A stretch of 37,978 bases of DNA from a virus. The position numbers and the translations under genes are program-made. The stretch lies in the UHGV virus genome UHGV-0283905; one strand, given 5' to 3'. Each line of letters starts with the position of its first letter. The first letter of the stretch is position 1. Below the pieces are notes generated by a model. The model saw nothing but the letters and a program-made list of their open reading frames with translations, had not been told where the DNA came from and did no database searches. Shown here piece by piece: positions 12,147-37,194 of this stretch.

Positions 12147-14609
12147 TCAATTCCCTGTTAATTGCAAAACTTGCTCTTCCAGCTTTTTAACCCTGCGTCT
12201 CATCATCGCAGATTCCAGAATCAGAGCCTCTTCATAACGGATACCGTAACATTCACCAGCCTCGACGGCTTCGCGTACCAGAACCTTTGTCTGTATAAGT
12301 GGGTAAACTCCTGCAGAATGCTCTTCTTCCGTCACATCCCTGTATTCTGCCGGGGTCTCATTCCACTTGTCATAACAGATAAATGCCAGTCGTGACACAT
12401 CTATGCCTTCATTCTGAAATACACTGATAACATGCTGCGCAACTGCACCAAAGTGCCATCTTGCTCCGTCTTTACCTTTCACTTCGATCCTGTCAAGGTA
12501 CTGGTATGAAACCCATTCCACTCTTTCCCATGCGTCCAGTATTTTCTCATCAATAACCTCTGGAGCAGTCTTGAAACGCGCATCGGACAGCACCGTAAAC
12601 GCTGACTGGGTAAATCCCCCCGACCATGCACGACCAGCCAACCCAAGAGAATAAGTATTCGTTGTCGATGGTGTCATGGCTGAATCAGAAAACTGTATAT
12701 ATTCTGAATTTCCAGTAGATATTCGAATATTTCCATTTATTAGCGACATAGTGCCTTTAGTATTATCACTATTGAATAATTTCAATTGCGAACTTATACC
12801 GCCTCCCACAGCCAGAGATACATCGCCTTCAGCAAGCATTCTGAATTTATCTGCAGAAACAAGCGTCTGGTTAGCAAGGTTAAAATATTTAACCCACCAT
12901 TCAAAACGCCCTGACATAGTCCCAACGTACTGACCAAGCGCAGGGACGTGAACAACATTGCTATTTGTAGTGCCGTCTATACTGGAAATACCAGTCACCG
13001 CTGATGCAGAACTCAGAATATTATTTCTGTCACCCGGATGTTTAATTTCAACAAAGTTCCTGATACACCCTTCCTCGAAGGTAACCACGCCGGAAGAACT
13101 ATACATGGGGAATATTGACGCATAATTACTGCGTGCAGCATCTAAGAAACGAATGGTTGTAGATGCCTGCAGATCTCCTGATTCATTTTTCCCATCACAC
13201 CCAGTCATTAGAATATTACTGGCAATATTATTATTTCCCTGAACGGTGACGCCGTGCGCCTGCTTTGCGTCCGATTCAGAGTAATCAACCAGCACATCCG
13301 AAATCAGGTTACCAGTCCCCTTGCCAACAACTACTGCGGCGTATTTTGGGTTGTTAGCCATTACACTGCTAATGATATTATTCGTTGGGGCAGTTTCCGT
13401 CTCAGTTCCATTGTAAACAACGTGCTGACACTCTTCACCAATAACATTGCTGACAATGTTATATTTTGCTGCTGTTTTAAGTTCCACTGCACCAAACTGA
13501 GGATAATTTCTGGCTATCACACCATCAATTAGCGTATTTTGCGATGAATCAAAAAGCACACAACCTGCTTTTTTATTATTTGCGAACCCTAAATACTCTC
13601 CTCTTATATCTCTAACAATGTAACCTGACGGAATACCATTATCCGGATAAGCGATCAAGCTAAATCCTGGTCCTCGCGTATTTGTAAATCTGATATTTTT
13701 AACCGATACATCATGGCCACCTGAAAATGACACCTGGTGTCCCTGCACACTATCATCTGATTTATTTCCCATAATTGTTAGCGTACTAAGCATGCCACCA
13801 TCGGGCATGTTAAAAACCAGATGATTACCATCTCTGTCATACTGTTTTATCGTTCCCCCACCTGTTCCGTACAAGCCACAACGTGAAAGAGAAACTAAAG
13901 ATGTATTGAATACCCCTTCCGGAACAAAAACACTGCTAAACGAATGTAATGATTTTGTAAAAGCATCCTTGTTATCATTTAAGATTCCATTTTGAGCTCC
14001 AAAATCCTTAATGCTGACACCATCACGCATCTTATCCTGGAACGTTCTGTATACCGCTCCAGAACCATACTGAATAAACCAACCAAAACCACCAATAACT
14101 CCGGCGATTGCAGCATCGACATAATTACGCATTGAGCGATTATTTACAGCGTCCTGCTCAAGTGATGGATCGGCAAGGTTAGATATTCTGTTTTGCTTTG
14201 CATCGTAATATTTTGCAAGCAAAGATGGTTTCATCAATGCACGTCTGAACCACCCAAAACATCGCTGGATCAGCATCGTCAGGTAGTCAAATGCATCCTC
14301 ATGAACTTCGGGGAAAAATTTTCCCTGATTGCGAAGATCAGTCTCCTGCACCACATCAAGCACACGCTCTATCGTGATTCGCCAGCCAGCAGCAAGCGGC
14401 GACGGAAGAACCACTGCACCGCCACTATAAGTTCCCGCCCCTGTTACCGTATAACCAGCATCCAGCACTAGTTTTGTAACGTTACCGTTAAGGTCAGACA
14501 CCTGAACAACCAGGTCGGATTTTTTGAAAATACGGAAGGTATACGGAAATGATGTCGTAACGCCGTTACCTGTGTATTCGTTGTGGTCAACTTCGGTTGA
14601 GACCGTCAT
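12147..14609 (-). CDS. tailspike / tail fibre with central beta-helix (depolymerase-like) and C-terminal S74-type intramolecular chaperone
   Basis: 820 aa; conserved N-terminal particle-binding segment; AT-richer middle with beta-helix-like repeats; C-terminal LSDARFK...RWHFGAVAQ autoproteolytic chaperone motif. Confidence 0.85.
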   Translation of the reverse strand: MTVSTEVDHNEYTGNGVTTSFPYTFRIFKKSDLVVQVSDLNGNVTKLVLDAGYTVTGAGTYSGGAVVLPSPLAAGWRITIERVLDVVQETDLRNQGKFFPEVHEDAFDYLTMLIQRCFGWFRRALMKPSLLAKYYDAKQNRISNLADPSLEQDAVNNRSMRNYVDAAIAGVIGGFGWFIQYGSGAVYRTFQDKMRDGVSIKDFGAQNGILNDNKDAFTKSLHSFSSVFVPEGVFNTSLVSLSRCGLYGTGGGTIKQYDRDGNHLVFNMPDGGMLSTLTIMGNKSDDSVQGHQVSFSGGHDVSVKNIRFTNTRGPGFSLIAYPDNGIPSGYIVRDIRGEYLGFANNKKAGCVLFDSSQNTLIDGVIARNYPQFGAVELKTAAKYNIVSNVIGEECQHVVYNGTETETAPTNNIISSVMANNPKYAAVVVGKGTGNLISDVLVDYSESDAKQAHGVTVQGNNNIASNILMTGCDGKNESGDLQASTTIRFLDAARSNYASIFPMYSSSGVVTFEEGCIRNFVEIKHPGDRNNILSSASAVTGISSIDGTTNSNVVHVPALGQYVGTMSGRFEWWVKYFNLANQTLVSADKFRMLAEGDVSLAVGGGISSQLKLFNSDNTKGTMSLINGNIRISTGNSEYIQFSDSAMTPSTTNTYSLGLAGRAWSGGFTQSAFTVLSDARFKTAPEVIDEKILDAWERVEWVSYQYLDRIEVKGKDGARWHFGAVAQHVISVFQNEGIDVSRLAFICYDKWNETPAEYRDVTEEEHSAGVYPLIQTKVLVREAVEAGECYGIRYEEALILESAMMRRRVKKLEEQVLQLTGN

Positions 14610-15109: not shown

Positions 15110-15200
15110 ATTTACATCGCACTCCTCTTATGCCATAGTAATCGGGCACTGGCAAAATCCAGTGCCGGGATTGGCGTCCCGGGTTACTAAGTGGCGCATA

Positions 15201-15222
15201 CCACGCCAGACGTGGTTTTTTT
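15201..15222 (+). terminator. intrinsic terminator inside the intergenic region between the two antirepressor-locus genes
   Basis: CCACG-ccaga-CGTGG hairpin followed by TTTTTTT. Confidence 0.7.
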
Positions 15223-15351
15223 ATGCGTTAAGCACAGCTCAGCTATATCCGAATTATGGTGGGCTGGGCAGGGGTCCGAAAGGACGCCGGTACCACTTAG
15301 GCCGGTACGCCAACCTTGTCCAGTTCACCACCAGTAATTGGCGTTGCGGTG

Positions 15352-15365: not shown

Positions 15366-15383
15366 TAAGTGGAGATAACCACC

Positions 15384-16094
15384 ATGGCTAATGCTCAAAC
15401 TGCCATCTTCAAATTTGAATCTGTTAACCCTATCCGTTCCATCATTATCGATGGCCAACCATGGTTTGTAGCCCAAGACGTTTGTAGTGCGCTGCGTATC
15501 CAAAACGTCACCCAAGCACTTGAAAAACTGGATGATGATGAAAGGTCTATGTTCAACATAGGGCATGAACATCGTGCAATTTTTGACAGCCGAGTAAAAG
15601 AGATCAACATCATCTCCGAGTCAGGCCTCTACACACTGATCCTCCGCTGCCGCGACGCAGTGACACCAGGCACTATCCCCTACCGCTTTCGCAAATGGGT
15701 TACAGGTGATGTTCTTCCTCAGATCCGTCGCACCGGAAGTTACATTAAAAACTCGCTCCCGCAGGAAGAACGCATAAAGATGGTTGCCGACCAGGTAGCC
15801 AGCGCCACAGCATCAGCAGTGATGCAGGCAATGAAGGTAGAGAACAAAACCTACAGCGCCCCACTGAAGCCCGGCTACCGCAGCCTGATTCATTCGCCGT
15901 CTGGTGTTCTTGGCCTGACGGAGAACTCACTGCTGATGAATCTGCTGAACCAGTTACAGGACGACGGGCATGACGTATCGGGCGCGGCGGCGGAGCTGAC
16001 CACCATGTTCTGCTACATCGTCGGTGTGAGCAAATGCCTGCGTGATATCCAGACGCACGCGGAGTACATCAGCGACAAAGCAGGGTTCTTCTGA
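15384..16094 (+). CDS. Bro-N domain protein (antirepressor-type) with C-terminal domain paralogous to the upstream 85-aa protein
   Basis: ATG 15384 with GGAGA RBS (table start is GTG 15369); N-terminus FKFESVNPIRSIIIDGQPWFVAQDVCSALRI fits Bro-N. Confidence 0.75.
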   Translation: MANAQTAIFKFESVNPIRSIIIDGQPWFVAQDVCSALRIQNVTQALEKLDDDERSMFNIGHEHRAIFDSRVKEINIISESGLYTLILRCRDAVTPGTIPYRFRKWVTGDVLPQIRRTGSYIKNSLPQEERIKMVADQVASATASAVMQAMKVENKTYSAPLKPGYRSLIHSPSGVLGLTENSLLMNLLNQLQDDGHDVSGAAAELTTMFCYIVGVSKCLRDIQTHAEYISDKAGFF

Positions 16095-17097: not shown

Positions 17098-17109
17098 GTG
17101 ACATGTCAC
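17098..17109. promoter_or_regulatory. 12-bp perfect palindrome GTGACATGTCAC (copy 1 of 3)
   Basis: Overlaps the stop codon of the 98-aa membrane protein gene; adjacent to terminator hairpin. Confidence 0.5.
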
Positions 17110-17597: not shown

Positions 17598-20072
17598 TTA
17601 TTGCGGAGTGACATCCTGAGGTCGCCACCAGTATGTCTGGTTAAACTCTTTCTTCGAACGTTGCTCCATTTTACGCAAATAGCCTGGTGAAAAATACTCC
17701 TGCATCTGGTTAAAAATCATGTGATCGAGAGCCGCCTTCAAGTACCAGAGATTCGCACCTGGCATCAAACCTTTCCCCAGCTTCACCAGATCACCACCAG
17801 TCTGCTCACTCTTCCCTTCCACAGCATTTAACGGTATGCCCTGAGCAATCTTCACTACGTCATCAACCAGACCAGCTACCGGGCCAAGCATCGACGCCAG
17901 CGCGCCGCTTCCGTACCTAGTGTGATCTGACAATAAAAAGTCACCGTAAAGGCCAAGACCACCACCTTTCAGTAGAGCACCAAGCCAAAATTTAGCAGCA
18001 TCTTCTCCTGTCATCTCGCGAGGATTACGACCAGACGCAAGGTCGTTAAGTTGCTGCGACAAAGCGCCAAGAATGGTCGTACTGGCAATAAACGTCGCAA
18101 TATATGCCGCACGCCCACCAGCAGACGGCATACCCATAGCGCGTGACCAGTGACGCATAACCACCGAGATAGGGAACGATTTAAACAGGAAAACACTTCT
18201 CGTTAATTCACCTTTCCATGTTCCACGCTGAATACCAGAACCGGTTATCAGTTGCTCACGTGCTCCTGGTGTAATAACAGCCATATCAACTTCTTCAGTT
18301 ACGGCACCGAGCAGTTTACGCATTGCCTCAAATTTCACGCGTTCAGGCTCACCAAGATGTTTAACTGCTGAATCAGGGATACGCATAATGCTTTCCGGTG
18401 TCAGCATCGTATTATTACCGTTCCCCCAGTCCTCCTGTTGCGCCAGCTTCCATACGCTCCAGTCTGTGTCAGTAATCCCTTTGCTTTTCAGGATACGAAA
18501 ATCAGAGTCATCGAGGCTACGAAGGTCTGGTGTCCGTGACACTACTTCTCCCAGGCTTCCCATCATGGTTACGCCATAGGCGCGCTTGTGCGCATCTGAC
18601 CATGCTGTAAGCCCACTGGCACGCATTACCGCCGTTGCCGCCCAACGAGACACTGACGGCCCCATATTATCCATCGCCCAGCGGTTAACGCTGCCAAGTA
18701 GAGATTCCATCGCCAGACCAGCGCGGCGCGCCCGCGCAAGTTCTGTACGGTTCGTTGGGTCCATAGCTTCAAGCTGGTTGCGGAATAACTGGTTCATTGG
18801 AAGGTTGGTCACCTTCGCAGACAGATACATGGTTCCAAGATCAGAGAACGATGATAGCAACGCAGATCCGAGTCTGCTGGCAACCAGCCAGTTGCGGATA
18901 TTGTCAGACCATCGCGCGATGTGCGGATTCGCTACAGGCTGTGTCTTTCCGGAAATAAAGTTGTACAGATTCTCTGTGTTGTTCGCCAGCCGCTCGACTT
19001 TACCGGTTTTACTCGGGTTAGCTGTTGCCGTTTCTGCCTTCACCTGATCAAGAAGAGAGCGGAAAACATGATCGGGGTTTGGGCCATATGTTTCCACCAG
19101 TGCAATATCTTTACTGATACCTTCCAGGTGACCGACCATGATTTCCCATAGAGAGCGATCGCCATAAAGTTGCTGATATTGCAGATAGGAATCTGCATCT
19201 TTGAAATGTATCTGTCGTGATGCATTACCACGGTTAGCACGTGCGCCGGAAATTCGCATTCCGGTATCAGTAAGCTTATTCAGCCCACCAGTAGCGATCG
19301 TGTTATAAGCCTCTCCAAGAAATGCAGACAACTCGGCATCGTTCATCAGTTGTCCATCGGCTCGGATATAATATTTGCGATCCAGCTTACCTATAACATC
19401 GCTAACCCACTTATCCTTTGATACCGCCCCAACCTTTTCCATAGAATGATGTTGAGGGAACCCCCAGTTTTCGAGATAGCCAATGTCCCCACCAGCATCA
19501 TTAAACCGGCGGCGCAGTAGATCTGTCACTTCTCTCCACGCCTTAGCACCTTTTCTTGCTTTAGCATTGCCAGTATTTTGCCCTCGCATTTCATATACCA
19601 GGTCACGTACGCCCGCTTCATCTTCAAACAGACCAAAAAAGCGAGGATCAACTGCTTCGAATGCCTCCTGCAATTGACTCAATGCATAATCACGAGTGGC
19701 TTTTGTTCTGGACTCAACAGAGAGGAAATTCGATTTACCGTCTGCATTAAAAGCAATAGTACGGTTAAGAGCGCCAAGTTTCCCATCAGCCCCTTGATAG
19801 CTATTGATAAATTTATCCAATCTCTGACGTGCGGCTATAGTGAGGGCCACACGACGTTTCTTTAATGCCGCTTCTCGCTGTAATTCTTCAGATGCCAATT
19901 GTGCTGCACGATATAGCCGCTCTGATTCGGAAAGTTGTCTCCACGACATCGGGTCATCACGAGCAATGGAGCGCATATTTCGATAAATGCGGTCTTCAAT
20001 GCTCTGTATTTCTCGCGCCGTTAACGTGCGCTGCGCCGCCTGCTGGACCGCTTGTATACATTCCTGTCTCAT
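17598..20072 (-). CDS. large internal virion / ejection protein
   Basis: 824 aa, position after the other internal virion genes in a T7-like order; hydrophobic Gly-rich segment near the C-terminus. Confidence 0.55.
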   Translation of the reverse strand: MRQECIQAVQQAAQRTLTAREIQSIEDRIYRNMRSIARDDPMSWRQLSESERLYRAAQLASEELQREAALKKRRVALTIAARQRLDKFINSYQGADGKLGALNRTIAFNADGKSNFLSVESRTKATRDYALSQLQEAFEAVDPRFFGLFEDEAGVRDLVYEMRGQNTGNAKARKGAKAWREVTDLLRRRFNDAGGDIGYLENWGFPQHHSMEKVGAVSKDKWVSDVIGKLDRKYYIRADGQLMNDAELSAFLGEAYNTIATGGLNKLTDTGMRISGARANRGNASRQIHFKDADSYLQYQQLYGDRSLWEIMVGHLEGISKDIALVETYGPNPDHVFRSLLDQVKAETATANPSKTGKVERLANNTENLYNFISGKTQPVANPHIARWSDNIRNWLVASRLGSALLSSFSDLGTMYLSAKVTNLPMNQLFRNQLEAMDPTNRTELARARRAGLAMESLLGSVNRWAMDNMGPSVSRWAATAVMRASGLTAWSDAHKRAYGVTMMGSLGEVVSRTPDLRSLDDSDFRILKSKGITDTDWSVWKLAQQEDWGNGNNTMLTPESIMRIPDSAVKHLGEPERVKFEAMRKLLGAVTEEVDMAVITPGAREQLITGSGIQRGTWKGELTRSVFLFKSFPISVVMRHWSRAMGMPSAGGRAAYIATFIASTTILGALSQQLNDLASGRNPREMTGEDAAKFWLGALLKGGGLGLYGDFLLSDHTRYGSGALASMLGPVAGLVDDVVKIAQGIPLNAVEGKSEQTGGDLVKLGKGLMPGANLWYLKAALDHMIFNQMQEYFSPGYLRKMEQRSKKEFNQTYWWRPQDVTPQ

Positions 20073-29194: not shown

Positions 29195-29632
29195 TTAACC
29201 AGTTACTTTTGAGCGGATCGGGTACGGCGTATTGGCATCAACATCCAGACTGATACCCGCAGTGAATTTGCCGGCCGTTAGTGGGCCAGTTGCGACGGAG
29301 TAGTTAACACGCAGATATCGCTGAACACCGGCAGGCACCTTTGCAGAAACAACTCGTTTACCTGCTGTCAGGGTAGCCTTTGCCAGTGCGCCACTATCAT
29401 AAATAGTGGACCATGAGCTGTTATTCTCACTCGTCTGCAACTGGATGTTTACAGTTGCCTCACCACTTGCCGTGGCGGCTTCGTTAACCAGCACCCAAAA
29501 CTCAAGCGGATAACCCACGCCGATATCGCGACGGTTTCCATCAATTGGACCGAGATCGATTACGTCAGTAGAAGCCGCGGTATTCGTAACCGCCTGAGCT
29601 TCGGAGAACATCAACAGTTTGTCGGTGATCAT
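29195..29632 (-). CDS. hypothetical capsid-associated protein (decoration or staple candidate)
   Basis: 145 aa, Thr/Ser/Ala-rich, immediately after the major capsid gene. Confidence 0.35.
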   Translation of the reverse strand: MITDKLLMFSEAQAVTNTAASTDVIDLGPIDGNRRDIGVGYPLEFWVLVNEAATASGEATVNIQLQTSENNSSWSTIYDSGALAKATLTAGKRVVSAKVPAGVQRYLRVNYSVATGPLTAGKFTAGISLDVDANTPYPIRSKVTG

Positions 29633-29683
29633 CTTCTTTCTCCATTAGTGGGTCTGTTACGACCCACAGGTTAATAACAGGCG

Positions 29684-30676
29684 TTACACCACGCGGGCTT
29701 CTGTTTCCAGAAGCGCATCAGTTTCACGGATTGGTACACCACGGAATGAAGTCCACCACTCGCCTTCAGTCTCTTTTACGCTGATCGCCAGAGATGTTTT
29801 CTCCAGAGATTGCAGATCAAGAGCCTGGCCTACAGTGCGGTTCATGTAGAACACCGGGCGACCCATTCCACGGTTTGGAATGCGATGCAGTGCTTTAACC
29901 ATCAACTTCGCAATATTTGCGGCAGAGGAAGGTTCTGAAAGATTGCTGACATCGATGTTTGCAATGCGAACAACATAACGCCAGTCACGCAGAGCAAGTC
30001 CGTTGTCCCATTTGTAATGGGTGCGATAGCCTTCGTACTTGCCGCCATTAGCATCTTCCAGTGTCACCTGGCCTTTATCTTCCATCTGGATGCCAGCCTT
30101 CTGCCCTTTCGGGAAGATGCCATGCACGGTGTTTTCGCCCCACACCACTAACCAGATTGAGGTGTTATCTGTACCCGTGCCACCAGCATCAATGATGTTC
30201 TGAGCATTACCCGCAGACAGGCTGGAATAGCGGGAGGACAGTCCCATAAACTGCTGAGGGTTAACGCTGGAATCACCATAAAACAGCGTCTGCGCCATCT
30301 GCTGATTCATCGCTTCAATAAATGCGCGGTCTTCAGACAGGCGGAATTCAGCGGTATTGCCGTTCAGATCAGCCAGTGATTTATCGACTTCAGCATAGGT
30401 TTCCAGCATGCCAACGTAATCGGTTACCTGCACTGTGGTTGATTTGCTTGGCTGTACGCCATAGTTCAGCAAACGCCAGGTAGCTGAAGGTAAACCAGAA
30501 CGAATGGTGGTTCGGTGTCCGGTAGGAAGGTTCCCTTCGACAAAAGGCATATCCTGAAGGATCGGGTTAGTTTGACCGAGAAGCTCGATAATCTTATCGA
30601 CTTTCCCGTTTGGATCGACGCGCTTACCCCAGTCAGCCAGCGTTAGCGCAGTTAAGCCTTTAACAGCCATTGTCAT
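29684..30676 (-). CDS. major capsid protein
   Basis: 330 aa, position after scaffold and portal; followed by stem-loop GTGGGTC-tgttac-GACCCAC (29648..29667). Confidence 0.7.
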   Translation of the reverse strand: MTMAVKGLTALTLADWGKRVDPNGKVDKIIELLGQTNPILQDMPFVEGNLPTGHRTTIRSGLPSATWRLLNYGVQPSKSTTVQVTDYVGMLETYAEVDKSLADLNGNTAEFRLSEDRAFIEAMNQQMAQTLFYGDSSVNPQQFMGLSSRYSSLSAGNAQNIIDAGGTGTDNTSIWLVVWGENTVHGIFPKGQKAGIQMEDKGQVTLEDANGGKYEGYRTHYKWDNGLALRDWRYVVRIANIDVSNLSEPSSAANIAKLMVKALHRIPNRGMGRPVFYMNRTVGQALDLQSLEKTSLAISVKETEGEWWTSFRGVPIRETDALLETEARVV

Positions 30677-30684
30677 TTCCTCTC

Positions 30685-31386
30685 TTATTTGCCATAGAGC
30701 ACTTCGGCCGCACTACGCTGGCCTTCATTACCACCGGTGACCATGCCATCTTCAGACATCGCCTTTCCGATTTTCACGAACGTTTTGACCAGATCAGGGT
30801 GATTACCCAGCCCGGTGGTGTTCAGATATTCTTTGAGTTCAGGTGTCCCGAACTGGTCAAGCGCACGCTGTGCGGCGCTAAGGTTAGAAATCAACTTGTC
30901 GCCACCGATTTCTTTGTCAGCTTTTACATCCGCAGCCCACTGCTCGGTTGTTTTCTGCCAGGCTTCTGCCTGGCGCTGCTGAACACCTGCCAGAATCTTC
31001 GGATAAGCATCAACCAGCTTTTGCGCTTGCTCGTTGGTCAGGTTAAGTTCTCGCGCCACCGGCTCGAATTCCTTCAACGCTTCTGTATCCAGCTCTACGC
31101 CTTCGGCAGCCTGAAACTCGTACTTCTCAGGCGCACCCTCTGGTTTATCGCCGTCCTTTTTTTCATCCTGCTTATCGTTTTCAGGCTTTTTGTCATCAGC
31201 AGGTTTATCGCCATCAGCAACAGGTTGTGGCTTATCACCTTCCTGTTGTGATGGATCACCAACTGGAGCAGGGTTATCACCTGCAGGCGCTGACGGTTCT
31301 GACGCAGCCGGAGCTGCTCCACCATCGACTGGTTGCTCATTGCAAAGACGGCGATACAGCAAACGCTCAAATAAACTCATGATCAC
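30685..31386 (-). CDS. scaffolding protein
   Basis: 233 aa, acidic, Pro/Ala-rich N-terminal third and Lys/Asp/Glu-rich region; between portal and capsid genes. Confidence 0.55.
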   Translation of the reverse strand: MIMSLFERLLYRRLCNEQPVDGGAAPAASEPSAPAGDNPAPVGDPSQQEGDKPQPVADGDKPADDKKPENDKQDEKKDGDKPEGAPEKYEFQAAEGVELDTEALKEFEPVARELNLTNEQAQKLVDAYPKILAGVQQRQAEAWQKTTEQWAADVKADKEIGGDKLISNLSAAQRALDQFGTPELKEYLNTTGLGNHPDLVKTFVKIGKAMSEDGMVTGGNEGQRSAAEVLYGK

Positions 31387-31679
31387 TCCTGTTCACTGGC
31401 CTCTTTGGCCATCTTCAAATACTGTTCAGGGCAATGCGCCATAACGCGCTGAAACAGTTCCAGCGCCAGATTGCGTTGCCCCTCATTAAATGCCATTGCC
31501 ATAGCGTCCATCGGTGAGATAGCGGAAAACACACGGCCTTTCTCCAGCACCGACCAGACAACGCGACGCCCCTGTTCACTGCTCATGACAAAGCGAATGT
31601 CATCAATTTCACGCTGCGCCATGTCACGTTGCTTACGGGCGTTTTCTTCTTTCAGTTGATCGTCTTCGTAATCTGTCAT
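31383..31679 (-). CDS. hypothetical protein between portal and scaffold
   Basis: 98 aa, overlapping neighbours by 4 nt at both ends. Confidence 0.4.
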   Translation of the reverse strand: MTDYEDDQLKEENARKQRDMAQREIDDIRFVMSSEQGRRVVWSVLEKGRVFSAISPMDAMAMAFNEGQRNLALELFQRVMAHCPEQYLKMAKEASEQE

Positions 31680-33355
31680 TGTGATTGCCCACCCTGACCA
31701 CTAACTGCATTCGCCATAGCTGACAAAACACTCGGATCCGAAGTTTTAGCTTCGCTTAGCGTCTTGGCCCCCTGTGCCGCCGCCATCCCCATCGCCATCA
31801 TTTGTTGCTGCTGTTGTTGCTGTGCCCGTTGCTGGCGAGCCTGCTCAACCTGTTCCTGCGGAACAATGACGGTTGGAGACACTCCGGACATATCAGCGAA
31901 TGCATCGATCGCCTGATCAACGTTGAGTTTGTCGAGAGCTTCTGGTTTCGCTTGCGCAAGTTGACCAATGAAGTTGACCGTAGACGCCAGACTGGACAGG
32001 CCGATAGACTTCTGCGCCTGAGCCATGACGGAAATGTATTCGACCTTCAGGGGCATACCTTCCATCGCGTCAGGCGGTGGCGGCAGCATGTTTTTACGCA
32101 CCATCATCGAGAAAGCGCGGTCAATGAGAGGATTAAGACATTCGTCGTTCAGACGCTCCAGAACCGGCCCCAACATCAGAAGTTTTTCTTCTTTCATTTC
32201 GATCACTGCTTCAACAGGCATCGAGCGGGTATTGATGTTCTGCAACATCATGAACAGATCGACAAAGTAGGCGCTGTTAATGATTTGACGAGTGTCCTGA
32301 ATGTCTGCTACCAGATCTGCTGTACTGGGGTTAACCAGATAAGCAGGCCTGAAGCCATCCTGACCAGTAATCTGATCGATATACGTGATGTCACCAGGAA
32401 GAAGGGAGGCGCGCTGATTCTTGAGGGAAGTCGGAGCAACCATCGGCGGATTGGTGGCTTTATCAATCAACTGCGACTTGCGCTCCTGGAGAAGTTGCAA
32501 TGCCTTAACAGGTCCAAGCGCCAGCATACCCGGGCATGATGATCCATAAACATCTTCGCCATTAACTTCCCAGCGCGGAGCCATAATTGGAAACTCATCA
32601 AATCCGGACTCACGCAACAACTTGTCGTTATCGCCACCAACCTCGTAATAAACCGATTTGAATGGCTTGTTCTTGCTATCCAGCTTCGATGTATCGCGGT
32701 CAATGTTCGGGTAAACCGAATGCATCACTTCAATCCACTTCTCGTAGGTGCCGCTTTCCCACATGCTTTTTACGGATTCGCTGACGTTATTTAGTCCGAA
32801 CTCCTGAACAAGCTGACGAACAGTCATAGAGAACTTGCGAAAACAGGTGTCCACACTGCCACGAGGTGAGTTAGCCAGGTAGTAACTTCCTATCGGGAAT
32901 GGCATTGTACGAATGATGTCCTCGTCATCCTCCAGCACCGCCATTGCGCCAGTGCTGTATGTGCCGAGGCTTCCGTATAACTGCGGCAGCGACTGATAGA
33001 GATTCGACTTATTGAACATATCGTTCATGCGGTTCTGCACCGCCTCAAGCCACAACTTAACAGGGCCATAATCCATCATTTCAGGATCTGGCGTAGCCAG
33101 GCGAAACCACGGACGCGCGGGGCTTGTGATGCCTGACATCATGCCGCTGGCGAGAGTGCGCGCCGCCATAGTCCCGGTCGAATCAATAATGCGTGTATTG
33201 CGTCGATCGTTACGGTTGACCTCAGAAGTCAGAAAGCGGGAACCACGCGGGTTGATGTAATCACTCAACTCGCGCCAGTGCGGCTCGAACGACTGACGCT
33301 CGCTTTCAAGTTGTGCGAACTGTTTGTTCAATCGCTCTTTAGTTGTTTCCGCCAT
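31676..33355 (-). CDS. portal protein (T7 gp8-like head-to-tail connector)
   Basis: 559 aa; C-terminal Gln-rich tail QQRAQQQQQQQMMAMGMAAAQG resembles the T7 gp8 C-terminus from memory. Confidence 0.8.
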   Translation of the reverse strand: MAETTKERLNKQFAQLESERQSFEPHWRELSDYINPRGSRFLTSEVNRNDRRNTRIIDSTGTMAARTLASGMMSGITSPARPWFRLATPDPEMMDYGPVKLWLEAVQNRMNDMFNKSNLYQSLPQLYGSLGTYSTGAMAVLEDDEDIIRTMPFPIGSYYLANSPRGSVDTCFRKFSMTVRQLVQEFGLNNVSESVKSMWESGTYEKWIEVMHSVYPNIDRDTSKLDSKNKPFKSVYYEVGGDNDKLLRESGFDEFPIMAPRWEVNGEDVYGSSCPGMLALGPVKALQLLQERKSQLIDKATNPPMVAPTSLKNQRASLLPGDITYIDQITGQDGFRPAYLVNPSTADLVADIQDTRQIINSAYFVDLFMMLQNINTRSMPVEAVIEMKEEKLLMLGPVLERLNDECLNPLIDRAFSMMVRKNMLPPPPDAMEGMPLKVEYISVMAQAQKSIGLSSLASTVNFIGQLAQAKPEALDKLNVDQAIDAFADMSGVSPTVIVPQEQVEQARQQRAQQQQQQQMMAMGMAAAQGAKTLSEAKTSDPSVLSAMANAVSGQGGQSQ

Positions 33356-33369
33356 TTCAATGACTCCGG

Positions 33370-33576
33370 TTACTGACCAAGCAGCGTTTTACCGCTGGTA
33401 TTAGCGGTTGATGTGTCGCCCTGAGAACCGGTAAGCAGCGTAGAACTACGACCAGCAGCAGCGCGACGGCGACGAGTTTCTTCGTAGCGGGCATCAACAA
33501 CGGCGGCATCCTGCTCCTGTGGTGCTGCCTGAACTTCTGGTGTTGCAGGCACTGACGGTGAGCTACCCATGCACAT
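33370..33576 (-). CDS. hypothetical small protein upstream of portal
   Basis: 68 aa, GGAG 8 nt upstream of ATG 33576; overlapping 79-aa frame 33357..33596 judged less likely. Confidence 0.35.
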   Translation of the reverse strand: MCMGSSPSVPATPEVQAAPQEQDAAVVDARYEETRRRRAAAGRSSTLLTGSQGDTSTANTSGKTLLGQ

Positions 33577-33666
33577 ATCAATGACTCCGTACGCAATTAA
33601 ATTATTACCAATTTAACCACATATGATTTATTTATCGTAGACAGTTGACATTTAATGCACGAATTA

Positions 33667-33681
33667 TTACCTTTCAGGTAA
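33667..33681. promoter_or_regulatory. dyad site TTACCtttcaGGTAA; possible -35 TTGACA at 33644..33649
   Basis: Exact motif at the start of the non-coding region leading to the tRNA. Confidence 0.45.
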
Positions 33682-34003
33682 GTAAATGGTTCATTCCGGT
33701 TATTAACCTGACTGGCTTGTCGTTAAATTGAACAGGTGGAGTGAGCTTTTATTTTGAGCAGTACGGCGTATGGCACATGCGCCGATAGCGGTCTGGATAC
33801 GTTTAAGGGGCACCCTCCCTTGCTCGGGCAAACGAACCAGGTAGCCGGAATGTGCAAGTCGAGCGGTTTTATTCCGCGCACGGGGATTCACCATCCCGGC
33901 GATTCGGTGTGACGCCTCGGAAGAGACGAGGGTACAACGATGAGAGCATTTATGGAGCCGCGACAAAGTGTGGCGCCTTAACAGGCTAAGTGCTCTCAGC
34001 GTT

Positions 34004-34080
34004 GTGGCATTAGCTCAGTTGGACAGAGCAACCGCCTTCTAAGCGGTTGGTCGCAGGTTCGAATCCTGCATGCCACGCCA
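34004..34080 (+). tRNA. tRNA-Arg (anticodon UCU), CCA encoded
   Basis: Hand-folded cloverleaf: acceptor GTGGCAT/ATGCCAC, D-arm GCTC-AGTTGGACA-GAGC, anticodon arm ACCGC-CTTCTAA-GCGGT, T-arm GCAGG-TTCGAAT-CCTGC, discriminator G, CCA. Confidence 0.85.
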
Positions 34081-34123
34081 GAATCACGCCTAAGGACCGT
34101 GATGCCAGAAGTTCCAGGTGCTT

Positions 34124-34165
34124 GGCGGTGATGGTTTCCCTTGAAGGACTATCACCGCCCTTTTT
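34124..34165 (+). terminator. terminator-like hairpin after the tRNA
   Basis: GGCGGTGAT ... ATCACCGCC stem followed by CTTTTT. Confidence 0.55.
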
Positions 34166-34243
34166 ACAGCAGGACGCCATTGCGATGACTTCATGCTGTA
34201 AACCAGTACAGCCACGGAAGGCATAACTCATTGCTTCCAGTTC

Positions 34244-34267
34244 GCCCGGTTCGCCGGGCATTTTTTT
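34244..34267 (+). terminator. intrinsic-terminator-like hairpin in the leader of the DUF2829 gene (attenuator candidate)
   Basis: GCCCGG-ttcg-CCGGGC plus TTTTTTT, ending 12 nt before ATG 34279. Confidence 0.6.
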
Positions 34268-34278
34268 AAGGTGAGATT

Positions 34279-34575
34279 ATGAGCGAAACATCAACAGTAT
34301 CTTTCTCCACTGCTTTGTCATCACTCAAAGATGGTAAGCGCATTGCACGTGCCGGATGGAATGGCAAAGGCATGTATCTGCAACTGGTTAAGCCACCGCA
34401 ATCGGCCACTCCGAACGAGTGGCGATTTGACGTTACATGCGGTGACGAGTATACATTTGTACCTGGCGTTAAACTTCTACCGTGGATTGGGATGAAAACT
34501 GCTGACGGTTGCTTTGTACCGTGGCTGGCATCTCAAACCGATCTGCTATCTGATGACTGGATTGTAATTCAATAA
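34279..34575 (+). CDS. DUF2829-family protein (Tad2-like, candidate anti-Thoeris sponge)
   Basis: 98 aa; N-terminal FSTALSSLKDGKRIARAGWNGKGMYLQL and C-terminal VPWLASQTDLLSDDWIVI fit my recollection of the DUF2829 pattern; opposite orientation to flanking structural genes, own terminator. Confidence 0.55.
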   Translation: MSETSTVSFSTALSSLKDGKRIARAGWNGKGMYLQLVKPPQSATPNEWRFDVTCGDEYTFVPGVKLLPWIGMKTADGCFVPWLASQTDLLSDDWIVIQ

Positions 34576-34579
34576 CACC

Positions 34580-34591
34580 GTGACATGTCAC
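34580..34591. promoter_or_regulatory. 12-bp perfect palindrome GTGACATGTCAC (copy 2 of 3)
   Basis: 4 nt upstream of terminator hairpin 34596..34622. Confidence 0.5.
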
Positions 34592-34595
34592 AAAC

Positions 34596-34622
34596 AGCCA
34601 GCCTATGAGCTGGCTTTGTTTT
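34596..34622 (+). terminator. intrinsic terminator after the DUF2829 gene
   Basis: AGCCAGC-ctatga-GCTGGCT plus TTGTTTT. Confidence 0.7.
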
Positions 34623-34665
34623 ATCCTCACCAGAGGATATCAACGACATTATCCCCACCAGCGGA

Positions 34666-36141
34666 TTAAGCATAGGGATCGTAATCTGTAATGGCCTTGC
34701 CTTGCTGGTTCTGCTGACCTGGAATTCGCAGACGCTTCGACACAGGGAAAGCAAACGTCAGCAATAGCGCATCGCCTTTACCAGGAGAACGCCCAAGCCG
34801 CTCCTTGATATCTTCCTTCGGTTCGATAACGATTTTACCGTCCACTCGAACTTTGTACTCTGCCGCCGACAGGTCGTCCGCTGTTTCCTGGTCATCAAGC
34901 ATGCCGCCCAGCCTCAGCCATGTCTTGCATGAGTTGAACATCTCCCCGCGCTTATTGAGCATCTGCGGGTCAGTAGACGCGCCACCGAACGGAACAAGTT
35001 GCCATGTACGACCCCAGCCATCACCGATTGACTTCAGACCAGTTCCGTAACCGAAGTCGATGAACACTGCGTCAGCCTGGTACTGGTCTTCAAAGTCAGC
35101 GATACGCTTCGCCATAATCAGATCGTCAGTGGTCTTGTTGCCGGTCCACAGCACCTTACTGTGCAGCCCCTGCCGCAGATATATCACCGCGTCATCAACA
35201 CCGGAGTATGCCGGGTCAACGCCGATTATCACCGGAGCATGTGCAACCTGCGCAGCGGTGACCACCCGTTTCATTGCCTCGTCAGTAAGTCCGGTAGGGA
35301 TAAACTGCAATTCAGATGCATCCGGGAATATGCCGCGCACACGGATTTTAACGAAGTCGCTATCTTCCCCGTAGTCATCAACCCATTTCTGCAACTGCTG
35401 TTTGTTAGTGCCTTCCACCGTCCGGCTGTCAATCTGCGCAGTTTTCCAGCGGTGTTTGTATTTGCGGAAACATTCGCGAAAACGCCCGGTATTACGTGTA
35501 GGGTTTCCGAACGCCACCCAGATAATCTCAGTGTCTTCGTCCGTAAGCGCACCCTCAGCAACTTCCCACACCAGATCCGCAATGTTCGACGCTTCATCGA
35601 ATACCACGATGATGCGTTTGCGCTCGTTGTGTAGTCCGGCGAATGCCTCAGTGTTGTGCTCAGACCAGGGGATTGCGTCAGCTCGCCACCGCTTGTCGTG
35701 CCCAGGATCATTGCTGTACATCGCAGTAGCGGTACAGGTAAACCAGTCTTTCGTGATAGCAAGGTTCGACCACTTGATAATTTCCGGCCAGGTCTTCGTT
35801 CGTAGCTGGTTGTCGGTGTTGGCGGTCACCACGACCTTACAATCCTCGCAAGTGGACATGCCCCAGTTGATCAGCATTGAGATGAATGCGGATTTACCAA
35901 TACCGTGACCCGAAGCACGTGCCAGCATAAGCGGCTGATAGCGCGTCTCTGGATTCTGCAGGTGATCACGTATCTCTCGGAACGCATCAGCCTGCCACTG
36001 ACGTGGGCCGGTAGCATGTGCCAGTTCAGTCCCCTCTTCCCCCCACGGGAACGCATAGAGGGCATAGCCAAGCGGATCGTGAGTGAACCCTGCAATATCC
36101 TCGATCAACTGCTCTTCAGGAGATAACGCTGTATCTGTCAC
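34666..36141 (-). CDS. terminase large subunit
   Basis: 491 aa; Walker A-like GHGIGKSAF; ATPase then nuclease layout; start overlaps small-subunit stop (ATGA). Confidence 0.85.
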   Translation of the reverse strand: MTDTALSPEEQLIEDIAGFTHDPLGYALYAFPWGEEGTELAHATGPRQWQADAFREIRDHLQNPETRYQPLMLARASGHGIGKSAFISMLINWGMSTCEDCKVVVTANTDNQLRTKTWPEIIKWSNLAITKDWFTCTATAMYSNDPGHDKRWRADAIPWSEHNTEAFAGLHNERKRIIVVFDEASNIADLVWEVAEGALTDEDTEIIWVAFGNPTRNTGRFRECFRKYKHRWKTAQIDSRTVEGTNKQQLQKWVDDYGEDSDFVKIRVRGIFPDASELQFIPTGLTDEAMKRVVTAAQVAHAPVIIGVDPAYSGVDDAVIYLRQGLHSKVLWTGNKTTDDLIMAKRIADFEDQYQADAVFIDFGYGTGLKSIGDGWGRTWQLVPFGGASTDPQMLNKRGEMFNSCKTWLRLGGMLDDQETADDLSAAEYKVRVDGKIVIEPKEDIKERLGRSPGKGDALLLTFAFPVSKRLRIPGQQNQQGKAITDYDPYA

Positions 36142-36734
36142 TGATTACCATCCTGACGTTCTTTGAGTCGCTTCCTGGCTGCTGCTATGCGATCAGCAAT
36201 TGTCACATTCACATTAACATCCAGACGTTCTTTGAACGCGTTGACATCAACATGCTTACCAATCAGCTCAAGGTTCTTCACCTTGTCAGGCCATTTAATT
36301 TTTTTGAGGATTGTCTCTATCGAATCCTCGTTCATGTTCATGATGGTCGATGACAGATCAAAGCCACTAAGCGTAGTGCGCCAGATTTTCGGCCACTCAC
36401 GGATTGGTTTAAGGCTCCCATCGTCGTTGAGGATGTCGATCACGTCCATCTGGTCGATCTGCACCAGGCGCATGAGAACGTAATCAGCACTGACGCGCAT
36501 TCGTTTGTTGCGCTCCTCCATCAACTCGGCAATCCGTTTTTGAATGCGTTCATCGCGCATCATGACACTGGCTTTAACTGCCGCTGTATTTGGGGAGAAT
36601 CCTGCGTTAATCGCTGCCTGAGTCTGGTTTTCAGGCGTTTTGATGTATGACTGGCAATAAGCCTCCTGCATTGCTGTTAGTGGCTTAAATTGCGTTGATT
36701 TGCGTTTATAGGTTTTAGGTTCAGCAGGCATCAT
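36138..36734 (-). CDS. terminase small subunit
   Basis: Start at ATG 36734 or 36731 (MMPAEPKTYK...), GGTGG upstream; the table's longer ORF (to 36812) would read through a terminator hairpin and is treated as spurious. Confidence 0.6.
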   Translation of the reverse strand: MMPAEPKTYKRKSTQFKPLTAMQEAYCQSYIKTPENQTQAAINAGFSPNTAAVKASVMMRDERIQKRIAELMEERNKRMRVSADYVLMRLVQIDQMDVIDILNDDGSLKPIREWPKIWRTTLSGFDLSSTIMNMNEDSIETILKKIKWPDKVKNLELIGKHVDVNAFKERLDVNVNVTIADRIAAARKRLKERQDGNQ

Positions 36735-36741
36735 AACCACC

Positions 36742-36770
36742 GTGGTAATAGTTACCGTTGTGGTAATAGT
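36742..36770. repeat. direct repeat GTGGTAATAGT x2 just upstream of the terminase small-subunit start
   Basis: Copies at 36742..36752 and 36760..36770; contains an inverted GGTAA-N3-TTACC arrangement. Confidence 0.4.
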
Positions 36771-36775
36771 ACCAT

Positions 36776-36803
36776 ACAAAATAAAGCCGCCATAGTTGGC
36801 GGC
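36776..36803 (-). terminator. intrinsic terminator between the late-leader genes and terminase (tR'-like)
   Basis: GCCGCC-aactat-GGCGGC hairpin then UUUAUUUUGU on the minus-strand transcript. Confidence 0.65.
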
Positions 36804-36844
36804 AGTATTCAAAACCCATCAAATTCATCATGCATAATCTACTC

Positions 36845-36856
36845 GTGACATGTCAC
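36845..36856. promoter_or_regulatory. 12-bp perfect palindrome GTGACATGTCAC (copy 3 of 3)
   Basis: Overlaps the stop of the Cys-rich gene, about 41 nt upstream (in transcription direction) of terminator 36776..36803. Confidence 0.5.
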
Positions 36857-37194
36857 ACTATTAATTTCGTTTCATGCCAGCCTTTAGTCACCCAGCATTG
36901 CGAGTCACCATTACACGGGCATGAATTAACTGGAACTCTCTCGCCGCACTTACCGCAACATTTTCTGCTGATCGATTTTATACGCCCGCGCACGCGTGCA
37001 TCATCCTGGCGGATCAGTAACGCTATATACTCACCAAATTCGTAAGGCGCACGCCCGGGGCGACGCGTGGCACAGTTACGCTCCAGCATTTCAATTTCCT
37101 GAGCATCCAGCACAATCTCCAGCTTACGTACACCGGATGCAGCTTGTCTGGCTCTCTGAGCGGCTTTGCGCTCTGCTGCTGATTTAGCCATCAA
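36853..37194 (-). CDS. Cys-rich small basic protein (putative zinc-binding regulator; late-activator candidate)
   Basis: 113 aa; basic N-terminus; C-terminal cysteine cluster CCGKCGERVPVNSCPCNGDSQC; immediately upstream of the palindrome/terminator/terminase arrangement. Confidence 0.45.
   Translation of the reverse strand: MMAKSAAERKAAQRARQAASGVRKLEIVLDAQEIEMLERNCATRRPGRAPYEFGEYIALLIRQDDARVRGRIKSISRKCCGKCGERVPVNSCPCNGDSQCWVTKGWHETKLIV

Follow-up and report, generated by a model that had tools for sequence, protein, structure and literature searches.

Genomic setting of the island

The viral genome UHGV-0283905, a stretch of 37,978 nucleotides (hereafter the window), contains a short island between the genes for the large terminase subunit (TerL) and the portal protein, oriented against its neighbors. 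The proposed transcript would run from a structured leader RNA, here called R1, through a gene for tRNA-Arg with the anticodon UCU and two intrinsic terminators (T1 and T2) into a slot for a single open reading frame (ORF), and would end behind a 12-bp palindrome at a final terminator (T3). In the window, the slot is occupied by a gene for a 98-aa protein of the Tad2 (DUF2829) family of immune-signal sponges. The island is a self-contained accessory operon of the 'moron' type, typical of phiV10-like Uetakevirus prophages. The best overall explanation, which we consider probable, is an operon with its own promoter in which R1, the tRNA, T1 and T2 precede a Tad2-family sponge gene that is reached by read-through.

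By comparison with phage records, the window is itself a phiV10-like Uetakevirus prophage, and the island is conserved in that group. In a BLAST search with the island, phiV10 and its relatives (Uetakevirus; epsilon15 group) were found to be 97-99% identical, one replaced segment excepted. The gene order, consisting of the small terminase subunit TerS (36138-36812, minus strand; PF03592), TerL (34666-36141, minus strand), the island, a 68-aa gene (33370-33576, minus strand) and the portal gene (31676-33355, minus strand; PF12236), is that of phiV10 p01-p07. A first-pass annotation, made from the letters alone, had described a counter-oriented island at 33600-34622. The location was right, and the true span is slightly wider, approximately 33577-34665 (1.09 kb). 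Its counter-orientation was borne out as well, with the tRNA, the ORF and the hairpins all located on the plus strand within the minus-strand terSL/portal operon. A terminator scan of 33300-34900 detected four sites on the plus strand as compared to 1.6 +/- 1.2 in shuffled sequences, and none on the minus strand. Since all four terminator-like sites lie on the plus strand, the direction of transcription of the island is fixed.

Two minus-strand ORFs at 33703-33966 and 34010-34261 (PhiV10p04 in phiV10; gp37 in mEp460) are almost certainly spurious. Coding on the minus strand in 33700-34260 was considered for these ORFs of 87 and 83 aa and rejected: they have no Pfam match, one of them overlaps the tRNA, and the homologous regions carry 3- and 4-nt indels that break the frame as well as compensatory changes in stems.

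A candidate promoter and two terminators ahead of the sponge gene

A candidate promoter region lies at 33601-33673 (plus strand), with TTGACA at 33645-33650, a 17-nt spacer and TACCTT at 33668-33673. A -35 element TTGAC(A/C), the 17-nt spacing and TACCTT are kept in the relatives from E. coli, Salmonella and Klebsiella, while the spacer sequence varies. We infer that TTGACA-17-TACCTT is the island's own host-type promoter, with a transcript start near 33680. The pick of a consensus scanner, TAGACA-18-AATTAT, which overlaps the proposed promoter, is not conserved. Host polymerase would then transcribe the island without phage factors, so that it could be active at an early stage of infection or in a lysogen. 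Among prophage genes expressed in lysogens, the strongest was reported to be a Tad2-domain gene of a different E. coli prophage (PMC12922286).

The sequence ATTATTACC occurs twice (33601-33609 and 33663-33671), flanking or overlapping the candidate promoter. Furthermore, the block 33601-33673 between the 68-aa gene and the island was observed to be almost invariant in the same three groups of relatives, and the proposed -10 element is overlapped by the inverted repeat TTACC-N5-GGTAA. The ATTATTACC pair and the inverted repeat suggest an operator and perhaps a divergent late promoter for the portal operon.

Downstream of the tRNA, a trailer hairpin AUCACG...CGUGAU (34083-34104, plus strand) shows the compensatory change from ACG/CGU to ACA/UGU in relatives. 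It is followed by T1 (34124-34165, plus strand), which was detected by the scanner and consists of a 14-bp stem (hairpin 34124-34159) and CUUUUU, with a folding energy of -22.8 kcal/mol (z -5.4). Its stem covaries between GGCGGUGAUGG, GGCGGUGGCAG and GGCGGUACCAG with matching 3' arms. The first-pass description of the island had left out T1, a stronger terminator that lies behind the tRNA and ahead of T2, and also T3. The conserved structured spacer that separates T1 from T2 (34166-34243, plus strand) contains an ACAGCA...UGCUGU and a GGAAG...CUUCC stem, and inside the spacer stem a single-stranded stretch, ACGCCAUUGCGAUGAC, is invariant in eight lineages.

T2 (34244-34267, plus strand) is the hairpin GCCCGG-UUCG-CCGGGC (34244-34259, -12.7 kcal/mol), followed by an A and seven U (34261-34267). 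The statement that a hairpin with a U7 tract ends 12 nt before the start codon was essentially right, as there are 11 nt between the last T and the ATG at 34279. In relatives, the T2 stem changes from GCCCGG/CCGGGC to the equally paired GCCCAC/GUGGGC. Directly after the U-run follows a Shine-Dalgarno sequence, AAGGUGAG, which was located ahead of the 98-aa ORF as AAGGTGAG (34268-34275, plus strand). The succession of trailer, T1, spacer, a further hairpin, T2 and Shine-Dalgarno sequence between the tRNA and the ATG is the same in eight lineages (E. coli, Salmonella SPN1S and others), and this 213-nt leader folds better than shuffled sequences (z -3.7). This arrangement of leader and terminators is under selection and not accidental.

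No sigma-70-like promoter was detected by the scanner between T1 and the ATG. Two promoters selected by eye after T1, TTGCGA-17-CCAGTA and an extended -10 element TGcTGTAAA, both lack essential bases and were discarded. Because T2 abuts the Shine-Dalgarno sequence and no promoter is found after T1, the sponge gene can be transcribed only via read-through of T1 and T2. The earlier proposal that expression requires read-through thus stands, with the hairpin and U-run of T2 being real and conserved with compensatory changes. In the proposed sequence of events, the tRNA would be excised from the transcript, and a fraction of the polymerases would pass T1 and T2, leading to the production of the sponge and to the mopping up of TIR-derived cyclic ADP-ribose (cADPR) isomers.

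The island ends with T3 (34596-34624, plus strand), a hairpin AGCCAGC...GCUGGCU (34596-34615, -12.1 kcal/mol) followed by UUGUUUUAU with the U-run UUGUUUU. The stop codon of terL, on the opposite strand, is 42 nt away, and in phiV10 T3 is an annotated terminator. Its hairpin also forms on the minus strand (-13.7 kcal/mol), but without a U-run.

R1 is a widespread structured RNA

The 5' third of the island is a pseudoknotted RNA with four helices and strong covariation, located in the first 400 nt, for which the first-pass annotation had offered no interpretation. This element, R1, comprises about 185 nt (33749-33942, plus strand) and is recognized by its covariance model with 154 bits (E 5e-46). 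Helix H1 is formed by CGGCGUAUG and CAUGCGCCG; H2 (GUCUG/CAGGU) encloses a variable domain and is accompanied by the invariant core GGUAGCCGGAAUGUGCAAG. H4 is the hairpin GGGA-UUCACCA-UCCC, whose loop sequence CACC pairs with a downstream GGUG to form the pseudoknot, and H5 is CCUCG-GAAGAGA-CGAGG. Among 51 diverse representatives, 96.5% of the cells are in agreement with pairing, as compared to 26-55% when the partners were slid against each other. Double compensatory changes were found for 12 of the 27 pairs, none of 500 shuffles matched the covariation score, and in five sequences the pseudoknot shows a double change from C-G to A-U. A long-range GCACAU/AUGUGC pairing suggested by RNAalifold was rejected, as it shows no covariation and competes with the covarying H1. 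R1 is not coding, because frame-breaking indels occur among its homologs.

Rfam 15 contains nothing that matches 33749-33942 at E<=10, and the tRNA was the only element of the island that passed. For the T2 region only a chance-level match was obtained (RyhB, 18 bits versus a gathering score of 55). Nothing relevant came up when the literature was searched for put-like RNAs and the R1 core sequence. Within the scope of Rfam 15 and this literature, R1 is therefore undescribed. It is nevertheless very common, being unnamed in databases but carried by well-studied phages (P1, Stx2 phages, mEp460). The segment 33763-34006 is 83% identical to unannotated DNA of the lambdoid phages mEp460, cdtI, 2H10 and Stx2a/2c and 80% identical to that of P1/P7. 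The exact 19-mer core GGTAGCCGGAATGTGCAAG was found in more than 120 loci of IMG/VR, and full-length R1 is present in species representatives of a dozen Enterobacterales genera. By BLAST, R1 was detected in 1840 of 5426 complete E. coli genomes (34%), on chromosomes as well as on P1-like plasmids, and was never annotated. Exact 18-mer matches in Azonexus, Bacteroides and Oscillospiraceae contigs failed the full model and were set aside as chance or partial matches.

In lambdoid phages, cII-, cro- and cI-like genes are invariably followed by the cI terminator, operator-like repeats with a good promoter and then R1, which begins 0-50 nt after the predicted transcription start. Behind R1 come a tRNA-like module, a T1-type terminator, a long stem with a U-run and a Shine-Dalgarno sequence, and then the early-left genes (DUF2303, recombination, xis/int). 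The GGCGGU...ACCGCCCUUUUUACA module typical of T1 thus also follows R1 in these phages. Judged by gene order, the position of R1 in lambdoid phages is that of nutL in lambda and putL in HK022, and the island looks like a lambdoid early-left leader module that was moved into the Uetakevirus head operon, plus one cargo gene. In mEp460, the one lambdoid phage checked, no N gene is annotated and the first downstream ORFs match no N-like family.

In place of tRNA-Arg, mEp460 (L002, 3245-3560) and Stx2a_WGPS2 (L005, 2690-3120) carry tRNA-like modules that are not called by ARAGORN. They consist of a 7-bp closing stem GUGGUGA/UCACCAC and T-arm-like GGUUCAAUUCC and GUUCGAUUCGG hairpins, with the T1-type terminator coming next. 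The whole lambdoid pL leader of approximately 600 nt looks like one large modular RNA.

In P1, 15 nt separate R1 from trnI upstream, and ban follows at a distance of about 100 nt. A tRNA gene abuts R1 in approximately 45 of 127 loci, either Arg-UCU downstream or Ile2-CAU upstream. Of 92 non-redundant loci, 90% show an intrinsic terminator on the strand of R1 in the 700 nt behind it, in most cases 140-260 nt away, as compared to 25% for the 700 nt upstream; this enrichment was obtained with a fold-based finder, whereas a stricter first finder, which missed bulged stems, showed none.

Antiterminator or stand-alone RNA

A tentative explanation for the position of R1 ahead of terminators is that it acts as a put-like antiterminator, which would make its own polymerase terminator-resistant and thereby open T1 and T2. 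The put RNA of HK022, a sequence of about 70 nt with two stems that occurs twice per genome, binds its own polymerase and suppresses termination at sites many kb away (PMC9378689). If R1 worked in this way, transcripts from the island promoter would reach the cargo gene, while stray transcripts would stop; failing that, cargo expression would be an attenuated leak-through. In its broader form, which we regard as equally tentative, R1 would represent a new class of cis-acting, protein-independent processive antiterminators, put-like but unrelated to put, which opens the lambdoid early-left operon as well as the anti-defence slot.

Several observations speak against this interpretation or weaken the proposed promoter. 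The proposed -10 hexamer is weak (3/6). R1 shares neither sequence nor architecture with putL/putR, and the R1 model found no match in an 8-kb HK022 segment, which may not include pL/pR. With the covariance model, exactly one copy each was detected in the window, in phiV10 and in mEp460, and one in the segments of P1 and the Klebsiella phage that were scanned; a second copy that could serve the right operon like putR was thus found in none of mEp460, phiV10, the window and the P1 segment. The element is promoter-proximal and upstream of terminators and genes in the lambdoid and Uetakevirus contexts, but the P1 context fits poorly: there, R1 lies 2.3 kb from Pban directly after trnI, and no obvious terminator precedes ban. 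Finally, an RNA followed by a terminator equally fits a stand-alone gene for a non-coding RNA. An interpretation of H5 as a lambda boxB-like hairpin with the upstream GAGCUUUUA as boxA was dismissed, since neither element occurs with regularity and an N protein was not found.

In the corresponding alternative, the terminators work as they look. The product would then be RNA only, namely R1 and tRNA-Arg, ended at T1 and T2; the ORF would receive a trickle of read-through or antisense-independent stray transcription, and R1 would be a stand-alone RNA that acts in trans or in tRNA processing and not as an antiterminator. The nearly regular presence of a same-strand terminator shortly behind R1 is the anatomy of a discrete non-coding RNA gene, the 14-bp hairpin of T1 is strong, R1 often adjoins tRNA genes or, in lambdoid phages, tRNA-like modules, and it has no similarity to put. 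However, a strong Shine-Dalgarno sequence is placed exactly 1 nt after the U-run of T2, and the slot behind it contains intact, actively exchanged ORFs in 112 of 113 loci, which implies selection for expression. Moreover, the entire lambdoid early-left operon including recombination and xis/int genes lies behind R1 and T1, with no N protein found in mEp460, and efficient termination at this site would kill the lytic programme. An RNA-only island is therefore possible but doubtful, and we favor expression of the sponge gene by read-through.

An exchangeable one-gene slot

A comparison with phiV10 and O157 typing phage 9 revealed near-identity from 33577 up to the Shine-Dalgarno sequence, which resumes 4 nt past the stop codon of the cargo gene. 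Between these borders, phiV10 carries an unrelated 123-aa ORF with the domain PF13876, which defines the Acb4 family of anti-CBASS sponges (bioRxiv 10.1101/2024.12.30.630793). IMG/VR was scanned with the 33-nt left border, consisting of T2 and the Shine-Dalgarno sequence. T2, the left border of the slot, was found with identical sequence in 111 loci regardless of the gene that follows. Together with loci identified earlier, 113 could be read through, and four further slot loci that end at a contig edge are outside this census.

Behind the shared left flank, at least five cargo families and one empty slot (L179) were found in the 113 loci. Most frequent are Acb4-family genes (PF13876; 82 loci), followed by a 140-aa unknown protein with two C-terminal variants (phrog_4846; e.g. 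L121, L195, L030; 21 loci) and the Tad2-like 98-aa protein (7 loci). A Cys-rich protein of 143 aa (phrog_18493; L077) occupies the slot in two loci and a membrane protein of 138 aa that matches phrog_11227 (L055) in one. An intact ORF is present in 112 of the 113 slots. Whatever the cargo class, GTGACATGTCAC, the 12-bp palindrome, comes within about 4 nt after the stop codon, together with a terminator, even where the terminator sequence differs; the palindrome is present at the right border in 93 of the 113 loci. As shown by this comparison, the slot behaves as a recombination hot spot in which single ORFs can be exchanged between fixed borders.

Judged by its identified cargos, the slot would be a counter-defence socket, which gives independent contextual support to the interpretation of the 98-aa protein as a sponge. 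PADLOC returned no matches for any of the cargo proteins; by this library, the slot is thus not a hot spot for defence systems. For the 140-, 143- and 138-aa cargos nothing significant was found in Pfam, and PHROGs yielded only unnamed or weakly named families. By guilt of position, the cargos matching phrog_4846, phrog_18493 and phrog_11227 could be new counter-defence proteins.

In a Klebsiella phage that shares the order terL, island, portal, the tRNA-Arg is followed by a different protein with a Tad2 domain, of 173 aa. Two such 173-aa proteins were observed, at L230 2285-2806 (Kapi1_043) and L231 2285-2806 (Klebsiella phage ST512-KPC3phi13.3), with the Tad2 domain at residues 77-173; one of them stands at the late-operon moron position of a P22-like phage and the other in the Uetakevirus slot. 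The unassigned N-terminal 76 aa that precede it could form a second sponge domain. In other phages, fusions of Tad2 and Acb4 domains are frequent.

The palindrome at the right border

The first-pass annotation had also pointed to a palindrome after the stop codon, and GTGACATGTCAC is indeed present at 34580-34591, 4 nt past the end of the cargo gene. The window contains three exact copies, whereas 0.17 would be expected. A second copy (17098-17109) marks the end of the late operon on the minus strand, immediately before a minus-strand terminator at 17097-17080 with UGUUUUU, and the third (36845-36856) is located between terS and a gene for a 113-aa regulator (36853-37194, minus strand) that matches phrog_536 'transcriptional regulator'. 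The three sites thus correspond to the start of the late operon, an internal break, which lies after the cargo gene and likewise after terL, and the end of the late operon. At two of them, the stop codon, palindrome, hairpin and U-run follow each other along the direction of transcription. The same three sites exist in phiV10, where the copy at the end of the late operon (19493-19504) stands next to an annotated terminator (19505-19522), and the phiV10 GenBank record is linearised inside the copy between the regulator gene and terS.

From this distribution, the palindrome is likely a protein-binding boundary element. It may bind a roadblock or boundary protein that halts terminator-resistant polymerases at operon ends. 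Alternatively, the palindrome, T3 and T2 could be recombination scars or linkers without a regulatory role, with the three copies left over from module exchange. The palindrome does sit at the exact right edge of each swapped cargo, and mosaic phage genomes are known to have conserved linkers where modules meet. However, the three exact 12-mers are found at functionally equivalent places, two of them immediately upstream of a terminator, and this layout is conserved in phiV10, all of which indicates a protein-binding site. We therefore consider an origin as mere scars doubtful and prefer the boundary element.

Tad2-family membership of the 98-aa protein

The ORF at 34279-34575 (plus strand) encodes the 98-aa cargo protein, which had been assigned to the DUF2829 fold on the basis of its terminal motifs. 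The profile search agrees with this assignment: residues 8-97 match PF11195 'Tad2-like' with 85.7 bits (cutoff 25; E 3.1e-24) over profile positions 2-73 of 73. In addition, residues 5-98 can be aligned to solved Tad2 proteins with E values of 1e-11 to 3e-15, namely HgmTad2 (8kbi, 3e-15), ModTad2 (9eib/8v3e, ~2e-14), SptTad2 (8wjd, 4e-13) and SPO1 Gp34.65 (8sme, 1e-11). The Tad2 fold is settled by this homology to solved structures. That the ORF encodes a true member of the Tad2 sponge family thus appears well supported. A prophage of E. coli ECSC054 matches the island with 100% identity between T2 and T3 (34240-34625), cargo gene included, and there the identical protein bears the RefSeq name 'DUF2829 domain-containing protein'. 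No identical protein was found in phage records; the nearest relatives belong to the P22-like phages IME10 (76%, unannotated) and Huey (~75%), in both of which the gene is located between the lysis genes and terS. This particular cargo was detected in only 3 of 5426 complete E. coli genomes.

HgmTad2 binds 1''-2' and 1''-3' gcADPR in a pocket made up of W21/N22/G23 and S90/T92/D93, and loses this ability when they are mutated; about 99% of the short Tad2 proteins are reported to have kept the gcADPR site (PMC10680739). In the alignment, both pocket motifs of HgmTad2 are identical in the 98-aa protein, as GWNG (residues 26-29; W27/N28/G29) and ASQTD (residues 84-88; S85/T87/D88). At the position of ASQTD, ModTad2, which is a binder of His-ADPR (PMC12393519), has TPSVSD. 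Since ASQTD is kept, the 98-aa protein looks like the 3'cADPR type. Most likely, the protein would form a homotetramer that sequesters TIR-made cyclic ADP-ribose signals (3'cADPR/gcADPR), as the conserved pocket residues suggest. Such sequestration would leave the Thoeris effector untriggered.

Two points count against so specific a ligand. First, the Tad2 family is functionally diverse, so that the ligand cannot be read from family membership: the members among 18 tested homologs inhibit type I, II or IV Thoeris, CBASS or Pycsar, and many inhibit more than one (PMC12393519). Second, R31, S47, F70 and N85 of HgmTad2, which acts as a dual sponge that also binds cGG/cGAMP, are aligned here to K, an unalignable position, L and P, respectively. 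The missing residues of the dinucleotide pocket would, however, weigh only against a second activity on cyclic dinucleotides.

Thus, the protein could be a Tad2-fold sponge for a signal other than the 3'cADPR of type I Thoeris, with His-ADPR, N7-cADPR, cyclic mononucleotides and cyclic dinucleotides as candidates, or a non-immune nucleotide binder. The range of systems inhibited by the tested homologs is in line with this alternative, and so is the insertion between the two motifs. It comprises about 30 residues as compared to 41 in HgmTad2, is intermediate between SPO1 Tad2 and HgmTad2, and has no counterpart in solved structures. The alternative is weakened by the identity of both gcADPR-pocket motifs with HgmTad2, from which ModTad2 differs, by the near-invariance of this site in short Tad2 proteins and, as regards dinucleotides, by the residues that are not kept. 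Overall, we consider another ligand unlikely and regard sequestration of cyclic ADP-ribose signals as the function of the 98-aa protein that fits best.

The tRNA-Arg gene and rare arginine codons

The tRNA-Arg gene (34004-34080, plus strand; anticodon UCU, reading AGA/AGG) was described as a full tRNA gene, and it is complete according to both ARAGORN and Rfam (RF00005, 73.3 bits, E 2e-14; model positions 1-71), with all stems standard and no non-canonical pairs flagged. The 3' CCA is encoded (GCCA at 34077-34080). Records of related phages annotate the same gene as tRNA-Arg, and it is conserved in approximately 30 related loci.

E. coli uses AGA and AGG at roughly 2 and 1 per 1000 codons, respectively. 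Across the ORFs of the window, AGA amounts to 6.6 and AGG to 4.9 per 1000 codons, an excess that is weakened as an argument by the crude ORF calls behind these figures. The comparison of phage codon use with that of the host, which had been proposed as a check, gave a divided result. The tailspike gene (820 aa; 12147-14609, minus strand) contains 17 AGA/AGG codons, or 20.7 per 1000, and several small early genes reach 30-40 per 1000; for the terminase, portal, scaffold and capsid genes (29195-36141, minus strand), the figure is near zero, at 0-2 per 1000. The skew in rare arginine codons was also noted to be consistent with a foreign origin of the tailspike and a need for a phage tRNA. In the simplest explanation, the tRNA would supply a decoder of rare AGA/AGG codons for those phage genes that are rich in them.

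It is highly improbable that the tRNA instead is an anti-defence stand-in for a host tRNA cut by an anticodon nuclease and the island a counter-defence unit as a whole: the tRNA does share the island with anti-defence cargo, phage tRNAs can stand in for host tRNAs that are depleted or cleaved in infection, e.g. T5 versus PARIS, and colicin D-type nucleases cleave tRNA-Arg, but the anticodon loop CUUCUAA is standard in the Rfam alignment with no nuclease-evading change visible in the tRNA sequence, the strong over-use of AGA/AGG in several phage genes suffices as an explanation, and we know of no defence nuclease specific for tRNA-Arg(UCU).

Other features of the window

Rfam matches above the gathering score were obtained for isrK (15146-15222, plus strand; 67.7 bits) and the C4 antisense RNA (15252-15335, plus strand; 66 bits). 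They lie just upstream of a Bro-N antirepressor-like gene (15369-16094), as in an antisense-controlled antirepressor module of the P1/P7/Gifsy type, here in a Uetakevirus.

The listed TTG start of terS puts 26 residues before MMPAEPK..., and the Pfam domain starts at residue 45. The corresponding stretch (36735-36812, minus strand) contains a GCCGCC-N6-GGCGGC hairpin followed by UUUAUU. The true start of terS may be located downstream, and 36735-36812 may be a structured 5' leader after the palindrome.

Significance and comparison with known systems

A tRNA next to a member of a characterised anti-defence family makes an ordinary phage accessory island, which in phiV10 is present but poorly annotated. 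Taken part by part, the protein adds a new member to the Tad2 family, the tRNA is a standard phage tRNA and the island a moron-type hot spot. Its socket alternates between Acb4 and Tad2, two known sponges for immune signals, and three or more uncharacterised small proteins. Should R1 be an antiterminator, it would explain the expression of the early-left operon in lambdoid phages without an N protein and would be the second example of RNA-only antitermination in phages. The triple palindrome offers a handle on late-operon regulation in phages of the epsilon15/phiV10 type, which is still undescribed.

Among known RNAs, R1 can best be compared to HK022 put and EAR-like RNAs, with which it shares the promoter-proximal position in the early-left leader and the arrangement of intrinsic terminators and then essential genes downstream. 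As for put, no dedicated protein partner is common to the three types of R1-carrying phages. Unlike put, R1 comprises approximately 185 nt, combines four helices with a pseudoknot and is present once per genome; the two show no sequence similarity.

The tRNA resembles other phage tRNAs, such as trnA, trnT and trnI in the ban operon of P1 and the tRNAs after Q in P22-like and Stx phages, which are likewise complete and read codons that are rare in the host and more used by the phage. These are likewise embedded in a polycistronic accessory transcript. In contrast to them, the island has a single tRNA placed between a structured leader RNA and two terminators, although in P1 trnI is flanked by the same leader RNA.

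With the characterised Tad2 sponges (SPO1 Gp34.65; HgmTad2, also listed as 'AcrIIA7'; PF11195) the 98-aa protein has in common a single DUF2829 domain and a size of about 90-100 aa. The identity to characterised members is 40-50% at best, and the central insertion differs in length and sequence. The Acb4 sponges (PF13876, 'N4 gp49 / Sf6 gp66') use the same slot behind the same terminator and Shine-Dalgarno sequence in phiV10 and 82 of the 113 loci, and Acb4 is also a small tetrameric signal sponge (bioRxiv 10.1101/2024.12.30.630793). Fold and ligand class (cyclic dinucleotides) are unrelated to those of Tad2, and the gene is absent from the window.

Accessory hot spots of phages include the lambdoid 'morons', the P2/P4 defence hot spots and the T4 PeSL cassettes flanking shuffled ORFs. 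The slot shares with them the fixed position, the alternative unrelated genes and conserved regulatory borders that are able to act as linkers. It differs from them in holding a single ORF between nucleotide-precise borders, in a left border that consists of a terminator and a Shine-Dalgarno sequence and contains no promoter, in its identified cargo, which is counter-defence (sponges) and not defence, and in its site on the opposite strand inside a head-gene operon. A single-ORF slot that alternates between sponge families is thus a new instance of a known phenomenon.

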